Shown piece after piece: positions 5,926-64,000 of a DNA stretch of 64,000 nt (positions are counted from its first letter, which is position 1; the number at the start of each line of letters is the position of its first letter). This stretch comes from Escherichia phage SF, in the sequence record MH359124; one strand, given 5' to 3'. The translations under genes were made by a program, and so were the position numbers. The notes under the pieces are model-generated. The model did no database searches and was not told the DNA's origin. It saw only the letters and a program-made list of their open reading frames with translations.

Positions 5926-5954
5926 GTTTACTTCTCCAGTAGTTGTGTTATGAT
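5926..5954 (+). promoter_or_regulatory. Early promoter with stem-loop (PeSL-like)
   Basis: GTTTAC, 17 nt, TATGAT; -10 enclosed by IR CCAGTAGTTG/CAACTACTGG (5936..5972); drives ORF 5981. Confidence 0.65.
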
Positions 5955-20089: not shown

Positions 20090-20515
20090 ATGGCTTTTAA
20101 AGGTTTTGAAGTTGGTAAGAAATATCGTATTATCAAAGGACAGGAAGATAATTTCTTGAGAATTCTTAATACGACTGGTAAACGTCTTAATACTAATCTG
20201 CATACTACTTTATTGTCCAAAGATTTTATTGTGGAAGAGATGATTGGTTACGGCGTTTCGGTTATTGCCGTAGAAGCCGTAGGCGATTATGGCCGAACTA
20301 TTCATAGTATGCAAGGTGATATTCTGCTTTATGGTGCAGAATTTAAATTCTTTGAAGAAGTTCCGGAACCAGATACATCTGTCGATTTCAAAAAAGGCTC
20401 TGTAGAATTTGTTGACGGTTCGGTGATCGTATCAGGTGATGTGGTCATTACAGTTAAAAGTGAACAAGGGCGTTTGGCTGCAATTGATGCACTTCAGAAA
20501 ATTAAATTTAAATAA
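20090..20515 (+). CDS. Hypothetical protein
   Basis: 141-aa ORF followed by a terminator. Confidence 0.6.
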   Translation: MAFKGFEVGKKYRIIKGQEDNFLRILNTTGKRLNTNLHTTLLSKDFIVEEMIGYGVSVIAVEAVGDYGRTIHSMQGDILLYGAEFKFFEEVPEPDTSVDFKKGSVEFVDGSVIVSGDVVITVKSEQGRLAAIDALQKIKFK

Positions 20516-61466: not shown

Positions 61467-61764
61467 TATGATTTTAACTGAACAAGAAACTATGGTTCTT
61501 CGTGAACGTATTAAAACTATTCTGTCTGTAGGCGTTCATTGTGTTGTATTTGAAAAGGCTAACGGCGAGGTACGCACTATGTTTGCTTCTCGCGATGAAC
61601 TTGAAGTCAAATATGAAAATAACAATCCAGCAACAGAAGTTCGTTATGAACCTCGTGAATCAGTTCGAGCATTCGACACCAAGTTAGGTCAGTGGCGTTC
61701 TTTCCGCCTTGATAAAGTAATTTCGGTTGATGGTACTCCGGTAGAACGTTTGCTTCTTATGTAA
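61456..61764 (+). CDS. Hypothetical protein
   Basis: 102-aa ORF. Confidence 0.5.
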   Translation: MVNNMILTEQETMVLRERIKTILSVGVHCVVFEKANGEVRTMFASRDELEVKYENNNPATEVRYEPRESVRAFDTKLGQWRSFRLDKVISVDGTPVERLLLM

Positions 61765-61765
61765 T

Positions 61766-61791
61766 ATGCTTTACGAATAGTATGGTATTAT
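61766..61791 (+). promoter_or_regulatory. Middle promoter for gene 31
   Basis: Perfect ATGCTTTA MotA box, 12-nt spacer, -10 TATTAT. Confidence 0.55.
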
Positions 61792-61821
61792 TAATCTATC
61801 GTCAAACAACAAGGAAATAAG

Positions 61822-62154
61822 ATGTCTGAAGTACAACTCCCAATTCGTGCTGTTGGTGAATATGTCATTCTGGTTTCTGAACCCGCTCAAGCAGGTGATG
61901 AAGAAGTTACCGAATCAGGACTTGTGATTGGTAAACGTGTTCAAGGTGAAGTTCCTGAACTATGTGTAGTTCATTCTGTAGGTCCTGATGTTCCTGAAGG
62001 TTTTGTTGAAGTCGGTGATTTGACTCCACTACCAGTTGGACAAATTCGAAATGTTCCGCATCCATTTGTGGCTTTAGGTCTTAAACAACCTAAAGAAATT
62101 AAACAGAAATTCGTAACATGCCACTATAAAGCTATTCCGTGCCTTTATAAGTGA
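61822..62154 (+). CDS. 31: gp31 co-chaperonin (GroES-like)
   Basis: 110-aa ORF; near-identical to T4 gp31 from memory. Confidence 0.9.
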
Positions 62155-62162
62155 TATAAATA
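62155..62162 (+). promoter_or_regulatory. Late promoter (TATAAATA) between 31 and rIII
   Basis: Exact TATAAATA directly after the gene 31 stop. Confidence 0.5.
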
Positions 62163-62278
62163 ACTATATGAAGAGAACACTCTTCTAAGCGGTAGCCTAC
62201 AACTGAGAGACTTGTCGAAAGAAGGTGAAATTCAGACGAACGTGGCTACTAAATATTATCTCGAATTGAGACTTTAAA

Positions 62279-62527
62279 ATGATTAAACAATTACAACACG
62301 CTCTTGAACTGCAACGCAACGCATGGAATAACGGTCATGAAAACTATGGTGCATCCATTGATGTTGAAGCCGAAGCTCTTGAAATCCTGCGTTATTTCAA
62401 ACATCTGAATCCTGCTCAGGCTTCTTTGGCCGCTGAACTGGAAGCTAAAGATGAATTGAAATATGCTAAGCCTCTGGCTTCTGCCGCACGTAAAGCAGTT
62501 CGTCATTTTGTTATTACCCTTAAGTAA
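62279..62527 (+). CDS. rIII: rIII lysis inhibition accessory protein
   Basis: 82-aa ORF, T4 rIII length; synteny after 31. Confidence 0.85.
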   Translation: MIKQLQHALELQRNAWNNGHENYGASIDVEAEALEILRYFKHLNPAQASLAAELEAKDELKYAKPLASAARKAVRHFVITLK

Positions 62528-62605
62528 GTTAAATCGAGGAGCCGTCGAATTGTCTGATTAATGATTTGCGAATCATTATAGTTTTAAGACCCCAACAATT
62601 TTACG

Positions 62606-62634
62606 GTGTACCTCTTGAATGTATTTTGTACTAT
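62606..62634 (+). promoter_or_regulatory. Early promoter candidate with long downstream leader
   Basis: GTGTAC, 17 nt, TACTAT; nearest downstream ATG with SD is 62792. Confidence 0.45.
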
Positions 62635-62791
62635 CACGCGTCAGAAAAAGGTTATCTGTCTAAGTCGTGGTTGGTATGATGACGAGGTTTATGGTTATCC
62701 TGTCGTTAAATATCCAAAACCTATGTTCCCCTTGAGGGCTTGCGCAGGCAATGTCAATAAGTCCTGCATTTTCATTTAAAGAGAATTTATA

Positions 62792-62971
62792 ATGGCAAAA
62801 CAAGCTAAAGCAAAGAAAGCAGTTGAAAAGAAAGTTGATGGTACCTCTAAACGCGCTGGATACAAGCGTGGGTCGAACTCTCGTATTAATCAAACAGTTG
62901 AGAAGATCATGCGCAGAGCACGTGCAGTTCTTCGAGATGATGCTTCTCGTTTTGGAAAGGTTGTTGCATAA
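62792..62971 (+). CDS. Small basic Lys/Arg-rich protein (59 aa)
   Basis: Below the track cutoff; ATG 62792; immediately followed by a strong terminator. Confidence 0.4.
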   Translation: MAKQAKAKKAVEKKVDGTSKRAGYKRGSNSRINQTVEKIMRRARAVLRDDASRFGKVVA

Positions 62972-62976
62972 TTTTA

Positions 62977-62998
62977 GGGAGACTTCGGTCTCCCTTTT
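62977..62998 (+). terminator. Rho-independent terminator
   Basis: GGGAGAC-TTCG-GTCTCCC then TTTT; identical hairpin to 47877. Confidence 0.8.
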
Positions 62999-63030
62999 GT
63001 GTGTTTAGGGCAGAAAAAGTTTAAAAAGAT

Positions 63031-63059
63031 GTTTACTCTCCTATAGGATGTGTTACTAT
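63031..63059 (+). promoter_or_regulatory. Early promoter (PeSL-like)
   Basis: GTTTAC, 17 nt, TACTAT; drives ORF 63101. Confidence 0.65.
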
Positions 63060-63100
63060 AGACTTGTACCACCTAATCAATAAAACAACCGGAGAATAAA

Positions 63101-63472
63101 ATGAACACTATCAATTTAAATGCTACAGTTAAATGCCATGACCATGATGGATATAAATCTCAAGTTGTTAACGAGTTACAGTGGATGGTTCGTTCAGTTC
63201 AAGGTGATGTAGTTTATTGTACAACTCCTGATGGCCCTTCAGACGATTTTTGTTATCATATCGAAATCGAAAACTTTTTCACTGGTGAAATTTACCGTCT
63301 GAATTCTACAGTTTATGGTTGTATTCGTTCTAAAACTTACGAAGACGAAGAGACTGGTTACTCTGAAGATGTTGTATGGTACGAAAATGCCAGAAATCGC
63401 GCAGAGGCATTAATCGAGAAGATTAAAGCAAAAGGTGTTATTGATTCAGCTAAGTGGACAAAAATCAAATAA
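63101..63472 (+). CDS. Hypothetical protein
   Basis: 123-aa ORF with own early promoter and GGAG SD. Confidence 0.6.
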   Translation: MNTINLNATVKCHDHDGYKSQVVNELQWMVRSVQGDVVYCTTPDGPSDDFCYHIEIENFFTGEIYRLNSTVYGCIRSKTYEDEETGYSEDVVWYENARNRAEALIEKIKAKGVIDSAKWTKIK

Positions 63473-63476
63473 AAAT

Positions 63477-63505
63477 GTTTACTTTGGTACAGGTTTTGTT
63501 ATTAT
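63477..63505 (+). promoter_or_regulatory. Early promoter (PeSL-like)
   Basis: GTTTAC, 17 nt, TATTAT inside IR GTACAGG..CCTGTAC; drives ORF 63547. Confidence 0.65.
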
Positions 63506-63546
63506 AGACCTGTACCAACAAACAACTTAAACATCTGGAGAATAAA

Positions 63547-63912
63547 ATGAACTACATCAACTTTGAACGCAAATATGTTTCTAACGGTATCGCCGGTTCT
63601 ATTGATACGATTTGCTTATGGAAACATAAAAATGGTTCAGTATGTGAAATTGAGCAGTATATGACTCCTAATTACGTTTATATGCGATTTGAAAATGGCA
63701 TCACGGTTTCAATCACAATGGACGGTTCCAACTTCAAAATTGCATTAGATGACGATTTCCGTCAACGTGATTTAGGTACTCATCCTTGCTGGAATGGTGA
63801 TAATCGTAAACTTCTGGTTAAAACTTGGATTCGTCATATCCTGAGTAACCGAGCTAAACCTGAACATCTCGAAGCAATCTTTGATGTAGTTCTTAACGAA
63901 TTCGATATCTAA
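63547..63912 (+). CDS. Hypothetical protein
   Basis: 121-aa ORF with own early promoter; terminator downstream. Confidence 0.6.
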   Translation: MNYINFERKYVSNGIAGSIDTICLWKHKNGSVCEIEQYMTPNYVYMRFENGITVSITMDGSNFKIALDDDFRQRDLGTHPCWNGDNRKLLVKTWIRHILSNRAKPEHLEAIFDVVLNEFDI

Positions 63913-63922
63913 TCTTAAAAAT

Positions 63923-63941
63923 GGAGGCTTCGGCCTCCTTT
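63923..63941 (+). terminator. Rho-independent terminator
   Basis: GGAGGC-TTCG-GCCTCC then TTTG. Confidence 0.6.
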
Positions 63942-63953
63942 GAGGAAAATATT

Positions 63954-64000
63954 ATGTTTATGACCACTTATTTTGATACTCGTAAAAATTTCTGTGAAGT
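63954..64000 (+). CDS. 5' end of a further ORF (truncated by window edge)
   Basis: ATG 63954 after GAGGA; runs off the window. Confidence 0.3.
   Translation, partial: MFMTTYFDTRKNFCE

Follow-up and report, generated by a model that had tools for sequence, protein, structure and literature searches.

Comparative evidence for a modular structured RNA, with a conserved pseudoknot, in the rIII–30.9 spacer of T4-like phages

What resides in the 264 nucleotides (nt) that separate gene rIII from the next conserved gene, 30.9, in Escherichia phage SF? The question is raised by a stretch of 64,000 nt of this phage (sequence record MH359124), hereafter called the window, to which all coordinates and strands refer. 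A first-pass annotation had noticed a gap of about 260 nt after rIII; the spacer measures 264 nt and spans 62528–62791, between the end of rIII at 62527 and the start of 30.9 at 62792. A 1-kb query around the spacer matched Escherichia phage PHB12 at 99.4% and RB69 at 96.6%, and by sequence comparison the source of the window is an RB69-like T4-type phage of the genus Mosigvirus. The + strand order is cd, 31.1, 31, rIII, the 264-nt gap, an open reading frame (ORF) of 59 amino acids (aa), a terminator, 30.8 and 30.7, and the synteny rIII–30.9–30.8 is kept in all annotated genera fetched. Judging from comparisons among relatives, the spacer is almost wholly structured RNA of the + strand, from just past the rIII stop. 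It is non-coding and modular, and would mainly be the intercistronic part of an rIII–30.9 mRNA ending at the terminator. The invariant core is an H-type pseudoknot of about 45 nt, called module A, with a conserved A-rich third loop; modules H and F lie upstream of A, modules C, D and E downstream, the last overlapping the ribosome-binding site (RBS) of 30.9.

The core element is the following.

62681–62724, + strand: module A, H-type pseudoknot (covariation, n = 30 distinct sequences)

Stem S1 of the pseudoknot is made by residues 62681–62687, with G62684 bulged, paired with 62699–62704. Loop L1 is an invariant UU (62688–62689). Stem S2 pairs residues 62693–62696, located within the hairpin loop, with 62718–62721; in other genera S2 reaches 7 bp, the equivalent of 62690–62696 paired with 62718–62724. 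The third loop, L3 (GUUAAAUAUCCAA, 62705–62717), measures 13 nt, is A-rich and is conserved in sequence. In the 30 distinct sequences 83.7% of the cells are paired, versus 34–56% when the 3' partners are slid by 1–3 columns. The covariation score is 0.408, versus 0.06–0.11 in the slid alignments, and 0.408 was reached in 0 of 500 shuffles. Alternative complementary residues are found at pairs 11–33 (UA in 17 sequences, AU in 12, GC in 1), 12–32 (CG in 19, GC in 8, UA in 3) and 22–52 (GC in 22, AU in 8), and at none of the three is pairing ever lost. Covariance and structure prediction across related phages had been proposed in the first-pass annotation as a check; once run, it returned covarying + strand folds in a conserved region. 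At the comparative level, + strand RNA structures exist in the spacer.

The distribution of module A was analyzed with a profile of its core in 72 rIII–30.9 loci from GenBank phages, IMG/VR and metagenomes. Exactly one copy was found in 69 of these, always on the + strand and upstream of 30.9; when 11 more-distant loci were added, one copy per locus was found in 71 of 83, with the same strand and position. The 64-kb window contains a single copy (E = 4e-15). Module A is absent from the loci in which 30.9 is not next to rIII (L070, L074–L078, L200–L202), and in L070, L074/L075, L076 and L078 gene 30.9 has its own promoter directly upstream. A diverged copy is seen by eye in L056. The pseudoknot is tightly linked to the rIII–30.9 junction, and is, in the phages compared, common to nearly all enterobacterial T4-like members.

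The spacer, or at least its 3' half, was found in 774 phage records, including STML-198 and Pectobacterium phage PM2. Phages with the conserved spacer have hosts in the genera Escherichia, Klebsiella, Enterobacter, Citrobacter, Serratia, Proteus, Pectobacterium and Edwardsiella. Between the window and T4, segment 62700–62799 is 98% identical, genes 31 and rIII 76–96%. Identity in the pseudoknot segment is 0.95–0.98 to T4, RB51, IME08 and a Dhakavirus-like contig, versus 0.61–0.91 in the 30.9 coding sequence (CDS) and 0.82–0.90 in rIII. For T4 and IME08, values are 95–98% in the pseudoknot, 91% and 66%, respectively, in the 30.9 CDS, and 89–90% in rIII. Module A is the best-conserved segment in comparisons with RB51, IME08, L055, L031 and PM2, and second to C-D-E in that with T4 (0.78–0.98). 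By these identities, the pseudoknot is under stronger constraint than most flanking genes.

Known RNA families were searched with Rfam 15 covariance models in E-value mode (E up to 10). Only chance-level matches, well below gathering, were obtained in 61500–64000, none of them in 62612–62859, and likewise nothing was found in six related loci and in the spacer of a Klebsiella phage. BLAST searches with the pseudoknot and the 3' leader gave nothing relevant in 72,556 plasmids and nothing in 5,426 E. coli genomes. When 185,579 genomes were scanned for the exact motif, only single matches in unrelated taxa were obtained, in numbers near the ~280 expected by chance, and none of them extended to the full pseudoknot. 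In the literature searched on 30.9, an rIII pseudoknot and T4 ToxI mimics, no description of the spacer RNAs was found, the older papers of the Nivinskas group lying outside this coverage. The spacer RNA appears undescribed.

May the spacer encode a protein instead? The first-pass annotation had seen no ORF longer than 18 codons ahead of the 59-aa ORF. This holds for ATG starts only: a 57-codon ORF starting with GTG (62606–62779) and a 37-codon ORF starting with TTG are present, neither of them conserved among relatives. An N-terminal extension of 30.9, the 57-aa GTG ORF and a 77-aa ORF on the - strand (62660–62893) are the possible products, and all are mechanically there. The 57-aa ORF is in the same frame as 30.9, a single TAA apart; T4 record X17657 annotates here a 97-aa "ORF D", and RB32 and RB51 annotate 72 aa. 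In an alignment of the window, RB69, T4, RB32 and RB51, the 117 nt 5' of the 30.9 start are nearly invariant, while five 1-nt indels, residing within sequence 95–100% identical (T4, RB51, RB32, RB69), break every frame. Open frames through the pseudoknot region vary erratically among relatives, from 3 to 120 codons, on both strands. No protein family matched the 57-aa ORF, and the best PHROG match of the 77-aa ORF is not significant (E = 0.25). The 77-aa ORF is not conserved in relatives and was discarded as a gene; frame-breaking indels, erratic frames and lack of a significant family led to rejection of the 57-aa, 37-aa and 77-aa ORFs and of the T4 97-aa ORF D alike. Homologues of the 30.9 product all align from a MAKQ start, and measure 53–61 aa in all genera. 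The 97-aa and 72-aa extensions are, by this alignment, annotation artefacts. A coding function of the spacer is scarcely credible; broken frames and erratic open-frame lengths on both strands show that 62528–62791 is non-coding.

The other features of the locus, from 5' to 3', are listed below.

62279–62527, + strand: rIII, lysis-inhibition accessory protein, the upstream cistron (82-aa ORF; named rIII in the annotation of RB69, ATK47 and others)
62536–62614, + strand: module H, long irregular helix capped by an AU-rich hairpin at 62559–62578 (minimum free energy (MFE) fold, covariation)
62606–62634, + strand: promoter-like motif GTGTAC-N17-TACTAT, doubtful (hexamers and spacing present)
62629–62676, + strand: module F, hairpin (-11.9 kcal/mol, z = -2.6)
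62728–62738, + strand: module C, small hairpin CCC-CUUGA-GGG (consensus fold; weak, -2.7 kcal/mol, z = -0.2)
62744–62767, + strand: module D, helix GCAGG/CCUGC with conserved loop CAAUGUCAAUAAGU (consensus fold, compensatory change AU to UA)
62768–62786, + strand: module E, weak hairpin AUUUUC-AUUUAAA-GAGAAU (predicted; -1.9 kcal/mol, z = +0.4)
62792–62971, + strand: gene 30.9, 59-aa basic protein (RB69 gp30.9 annotation, phrog_1427)
62976–63005, + strand: intrinsic terminator ending the rIII–30.9 unit (8-bp stem, UUCG loop, T-run)

Helix H includes GGAG (62538–62541) in its 5' strand, and part of the "-35" GTGTAC in its 3' strand. In 18 distinct relatives 98.7% of the cells are paired, versus 31–61% in slid alignments, and the covariation score was reached in 0 of 500 shuffles. 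Four pairs are changed on both sides, including a GC pair replaced by AU by way of G-U. Module A is better supported than helix H, because the structure of H derives from the MFE fold of the window itself and divergence is low. The helix is rich in G-U pairs, which correspond to C-A mismatches on the opposite strand; since these pairs work only in the + transcript, the + strand is indicated as the RNA strand. In hairpin F, an inner stem is formed by CAGA (62642–62645) and UCUG (62655–62658), closed by the loop AAAAGGUUA, and the outer stem uses TACTATCACG; the inner stem is CAGC/GCUG in L013 and L034.

Downstream of the pseudoknot, stem variants of hairpin C were noted by eye (CCUC/GAGG in L025, GCC/GGC in L071 and L072, UCC/GGA in L036). 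Helix D carries larger, differing apical domains in other genera; in an alignment curated by hand, 15 distinct stems across genera are 96% complementary, versus 54 +/- 5.5% when randomly re-paired. Hairpin E includes the Shine-Dalgarno (SD)-like GAG of 30.9 (62781–62783). Analogous hairpins pairing the SD sequence with an anti-SD occur before 30.9 and rIII in other genera (CUCC...GGAAG, CCUC-AUUU-GAGG; inspection only). The fold of 62528–62680 has z = -1.4; thermodynamic stability of spacer segments is uninformative, and the evidence for structure is comparative. The first-pass annotation had suggested a leader that could be a structured regulatory RNA. Covariation agrees with it as far as a structured, conserved and non-coding RNA is concerned; the RNA does not start at the promoter then proposed, and structure fills the whole spacer.

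How might this RNA function? In the reading preferred here, with a probability of about 0.4, it would act in cis on translation or stability of 30.9, through a protein recognising the pseudoknot and the conserved loops. Control would be post-transcriptional, exerted on translation of 30.9 or on stability of the segment, and candidate proteins are gp30.9 itself, RIII and the host ribosomal protein S1. RIII binds S1, and has recently been linked to S1 and RegB (PMC9409239). The same layout of a hairpin, a long helix and an SD hairpin is found before rIII, and module A is lost where 30.9 is not adjacent to rIII; both were counted in favour of action in cis. Gp30.9 is basic and, by its predicted model, half disordered, as RNA-binding proteins often are, which suggests that it could be the partner. 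Conservation across phages of eight bacterial genera points to a partner common to all hosts. Other findings weigh against such a mechanism. Between the pseudoknot and the 30.9 start there are ~70 to ~300 nt, and module order is variable, which is unusual for an operator coupled to the RBS. S2 has only 4 Watson-Crick pairs in the lineage of the window. Hairpin E has marginal predicted stability (-1.9 kcal/mol, z = +0.4), and by this prediction cannot alone be a strong block; the 3' half (62640–62810) folds no better than shuffled sequences (z = +0.5). Variable RBS distance, weak SD hairpin and cassette behaviour count against tight cis coupling, and cassette exchange, together with the ToxI mimic present in relatives, fits trans-acting RNAs equally well.

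Relatives with a ToxI mimic in the rIII–30.9 spacer make an array of trans-acting RNAs the main rival. The spacer would contain independent small structured RNAs riding the rIII–30.9 transcript, decoys or sponges for host RNA-binding proteins engaged in defence or housekeeping; module A would be among these RNAs, and cassettes such as F, B and the ToxI-like unit would be gained and lost. Modules are indeed swapped as cassettes: hairpin F and a ~140-nt module B are alternatives between H and A, T4 has neither, and order and spacing vary between genera, with module A lying 0–220 nt from the rIII stop. Loops are conserved much more strongly than stems, suggesting specific recognition. A profile of ToxI and its phage variants identified 35 related loci with one near-identical ToxI-like unit in the rIII–30.9 spacer, and phage phiTE provides a precedent, escaping ToxIN by a pseudo-ToxI mimic (PMC3475682). 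The window itself does not conform: the ToxI profile gave a chance-level match at 20314 (E = 0.41) and none in the spacer, which is not similar to the 36-nt ToxI unit AGGTGATTTGCTACCTTTAAGTGCAGCTAGAAATTC. What the window lacks is precisely the insertion that forms the 31-nt ToxI-like unit of ATK47; in the window, 62525–62540 reads TAAGTTAAATCGAGG. Module A is dissimilar to ToxI, is single copy with no tandem repeats, and had no plasmid, E. coli or other bacterial counterpart in the BLAST searches and the 185,579-genome scan. It is moreover kept across phages of many genera though defence systems differ between hosts, so a universal partner fits better than a strain-specific toxin. An array of this kind is rather unlikely as the function of the spacer. 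Less likely again is the broader proposal of an "RNA anti-defence island" evolving in the rIII–30.9 spacer of enterobacterial T4-like phages: one transcript would carry interchangeable modules (A, B, F, G, ToxI mimic), which would serve in trans as decoys or mimics for host RNA-binding toxins or other factors, and A, kept universally, would decoy one such partner.

The remaining alternatives concern the promoter-like motif and the DNA itself. GTGTAC (62606–62611), a 17-nt spacer and TACTAT (62629–62634) are present as the first-pass annotation had described them, and conform to the hexamers and spacing of T4 early promoters (GT(T/G)TAC, N17, TAnnnT). An early-type promoter at 62606–62634 would start a discrete monocistronic transcript near 62641, made of a ~150-nt structured leader and 30.9 and ending at the terminator. 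The neighbouring 30.8 promoter at 63031 has exactly such hexamers and 17-nt spacing (GTTTAC-N17-TACTAT), GTGTAC serves as -35 in several clear early promoters of the window, distant 30.9 homologues carry their own promoter and terminator, and a start near 62641 would place hairpin F at the RNA 5' end. Promoter status is nevertheless put in doubt by score, non-conservation and location within helices. Genuine early promoters of the window phage share an A-rich upstream tract, GT(T/G)TAC, N17, a TGn-TAYnAT extended -10 and, just past it, a conserved AGACCTATCAAC; the candidate has no A-rich upstream element, TGn extended -10 or downstream AGACCTATCAAC. A weight matrix was built from the window phage's own early promoters, with leave-one-out tests (two poor sites in the training set did not affect the result). 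The candidate scored -8.4 bits, versus 26–49 bits for real early promoters. Partial scores, candidate versus training median, were -9.4 versus +9.5 upstream, -4.8 versus +11.1 in the spacer and -8.5 versus +10.6 downstream; 180 positions on the + strand of the window and 220 on the - strand score at least as high. A generic sigma-70 scan found 6 sites, versus 7.0 expected, and the candidate is not in its list. The loose T4-early pattern has 57 overlapping matches on the + strand of the window (~34 distinct sites) and 10 on the gene-poor - strand (9 distinct sites, two matches being one base apart). The motif occurs at no more than chance level.

Variation among relatives bears on the same point. 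The -10 hexamer is removed in T4 and RB51 by a ~50-nt deletion, and several relatives have cassette B in place of the segment containing it; the hexamers are 11 nt apart in L015, and L013 has no -35. Helix H includes the -35 hexamer in its 3' strand, and the outer stem of hairpin F includes the -10 hexamer; both hexamers are within RNA helices that covary or hold G-U pairs, so that RNA structure explains their conservation. A transcript covering helix H, which is conserved and lies 5' of the supposed start, must originate farther upstream. In RB32 the conserved RNA with the pseudoknot starts two bases past the rIII stop; this leaves no room for a promoter, hence 30.9 must be co-transcribed with rIII. 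That an internal promoter adds transcripts in Mosigviruses is doubtful; it would be an extra source compatible with the preferred cis reading and with the others, and would not define the element. A DNA-level element (a replication origin, recombination hotspot or protein-binding site, for example) is very improbable as the reason for the conservation. The ATK47 record annotates a 10-bp "ori type 2 repeat" just before 30.9, and cassette exchange implies recombination at the locus. However, pairing is kept by compensatory changes, the frequent G-U pairs work only in the + transcript, a pseudoknot topology has no DNA-level rationale, and the orientation of the element relative to the genes is constant.

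Two observations on promoter-like sequences can be added. The long early-promoter consensus occurs in the window, for example, at 5926, 12604, 13982, 18631, 30917, 31239, 47926, 63031 and 63477. The octamer GTATGATG (62674–62681), directly 5' of the pseudoknot, is nearly invariant in most genera and includes the -10-like TATGAT; it is unlikely to be a promoter, as a start downstream of it would remove S1.

The element belongs to a known kind, the conserved structured leader and intercistronic RNAs of phages, and gp30.9 is known but uncharacterised. The pseudoknot in the leader of T4 gene 32 mRNA is the autogenous translational operator of gp32 (PMC535899, PMC3014915). It is likewise an H-type pseudoknot in an untranslated region, 5' of a T4-family gene whose product is a small or basic protein of nucleic-acid-binding type; it is conserved among T4 relatives, and served as model for the mechanism proposed here. 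As in operators of the gene 32 type, a conserved RNA structure is found upstream of 30.9, the gene that would be regulated. The two differ in that they are not known to be similar in sequence, module A is 70–300 nt from the RBS, and structured modules, rather than an unstructured A/U tract, lie between. Aptamers of the preQ1-I, guanidine-III and SAM-II riboswitches share with module A a size of ~45 nt, pairing of the hairpin loop with a 3' tail and an A-rich third loop. In contrast to them, module A matched no Rfam model (E up to 10) and adjoins neither SD sequence nor terminator, and 30.9 hints at no ligand. ToxI and the phiTE pseudo-ToxI are likewise small pseudoknotted RNAs, the latter in a phage intergenic region, and a ToxI-like unit resides in ATK47, T4 and Klebsiella phages. 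ToxI differs from the single, ToxI-unlike module A in being tandemly repeated, with bacterial arrays. Promoter-early stem-loops (PeSLs) are mobile regulatory cassettes of T4-type phages, reportedly described by Arbiol, Comeau and Krisch in 2010. They are said to be, likewise, intergenic modules made by a promoter-like sequence and stem-loops and shuffled between T4-type genomes. PeSLs are said to differ in being many-copy, with functional early promoters, in hyperplastic regions; the spacer modules are single-copy and restricted to one spacer, and their promoter is doubtful.

A covariation-supported pseudoknot, with other folds, thus marks at least ~770 phages, and is absent from Rfam and from the annotations examined, despite T4 and RB69 being well studied. 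If the finding holds, it provides a new candidate RNA family, a corrected 30.9 gene model of 58–59 aa, and an initial lead on rIII and 30.9, both obscure in function. Were the modules to act in trans, they would be a second RNA-based counter-defence after the phiTE pseudo-ToxI, and a far more widespread one.

The basic 59-aa protein predicted at the end of the unit corresponds to a real conserved gene, gp30.9, annotated in RB69 as "conserved hypothetical protein". It contains 18 Lys/Arg and 5 Asp/Glu residues, matches phrog_1427, a family of unknown function (E = 2.4e-31), and features the conserved core SKRAGYKRxSNxRI...RARxV. A profile search gave 130 homologues, none informatively named, and no significant match was found in Pfam, NCBIfam or PDB, PHROGs returning only "unknown function". 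In the AlphaFold2 model the N-terminal half is basic and disordered, and residues 34–54 form a single helix; the mean predicted local distance difference test (pLDDT) score is 68. The model is compatible with folding on a nucleic-acid or ribosomal partner, and is not diagnostic; a putative role of gp30.9 as nucleic-acid binder, one of two suggested earlier, is plausible. Nothing supports the other, an internal protein. No prohead-targeting N-terminus is seen by eye, the N-terminus MAKQAKAKKAVEKK varies among homologues with no conserved (L/I)xE motif (inspection only), gene 30.9 sits in a cluster of early/middle type, and distant homologues are found outside the rIII–30.9 setting, some on contigs not T4-like in appearance. 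Expression of 30.9 is treated by Driukas and Nivinskas (2003), as far as cited in PMC9409239. The strong terminator noted after the gene was confirmed. Its hairpin (62976–62995; -14.1 kcal/mol, z = -4.2) follows 30.9 in every relative examined, with compensatory stems (GGGAGAC/GUCUCCC, GGACUCC/GGAGUCC, GGGAACC/GGUUCCC).

Distant gp30.9 homologues with 40–50% identity and a SKRAGYKRK core reside in L074/L075 (1501–1692), L200/L201 (4001–4171) and L078 (1501–1689). They are found between shufflon-type pilV-like and HMG-CoA reductase genes, near an RNA-ligase-like gene, and after a DNA ligase gene; these contexts are uninformative on function. Those of L074/L075 and L078 lack the pseudoknot and carry a sigma-70-like promoter of their own. 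Annotation errors are passed on among database records of the locus, for example PHB12, FP43 and OL964735 (T4): gene 30.9 is mislabelled as "1,4-alpha-glucan (glycogen) branching enzyme, GH-13-type" in many records, and is called "11.1 kDa protein" (97 aa) in T4-derived ones. Spurious small ORFs are annotated over the structured spacer, as in NRG-P0074 and TU02.

The reference ToxI repeats form an array of 5.6 units of 36 nt, directly 5' of a ToxN/AbiQ toxin gene, in the E. coli plasmid pNMEC-O75B (L079, 1128–1327). ToxI-like units in the phages are located just past rIII or just past pseudoknot A, and include those of ATK47 (L001, 1934–1967), T4 (L004, X17657, 1355–1386) and Klebsiella phage TU02 (L008, 578–611). 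Over ~30 nt, the Klebsiella phage unit, GGTGATTTGCTACCAAAGTGCAGCTAGAAAA, and genuine ToxI repeats share 93.5% identity. The T4 and ATK47 units seem, by eye, to keep pairing by compensatory changes (UUGC/GCAG, UCAC/GUGA, UCGC/GCGG). The ToxI-like unit of T4-like phages is unmentioned in the ToxIN, TifA and phiTE papers covered.

The rIII leader (62155–62278) comprises the late promoter TATAAATA and three folds: a 5' hairpin, a long helix whose apical domain is variable, and a short hairpin of anti-SD and SD. The last is UCUC-GAAUU-GAGA in the window and CCUC-AUUU-GAGG in most genera, the stems covarying by eye. The apical domain (62189–62265) shares 78% identity (E = 4e-10) with that of helix D in the 30.9 leader of PG7 and Klebsiella phages, and this shared domain indicates that RNA cassettes move between the rIII and 30.9 leaders.

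Two further modules recur in rIII–30.9 spacers and are absent from the window. Module B is a multi-branched RNA, found for example in Enterobacter phage PG7 (L010, 566–702) and in L008 (613–748). One copy each is present in 404 phage records, among them phages of Klebsiella, Escherichia, Enterobacter and Yersinia, and identity is mostly at least 90%; of the 43 pairs of its consensus fold 23 show compensatory changes; no match was found in Rfam or in E. coli genomes. In some relatives from Mosigvirus, Dhakavirus and Tequatrovirus, module B takes the place of hairpin F. The 5' half of the window spacer was considered as a degenerate module B, and this was ruled out as H and B co-occur in several relatives. 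Module G is a hairpin found in L008 (501–528), PM2 (L009, 722–755), L029 and L072, which features an invariant UGUACG loop, the flanks CCCAC...GUAAC and a covarying 5-bp stem (CCAUG/CAUGG, CUCUG/CAGAG, CUUUG/CAAAG).

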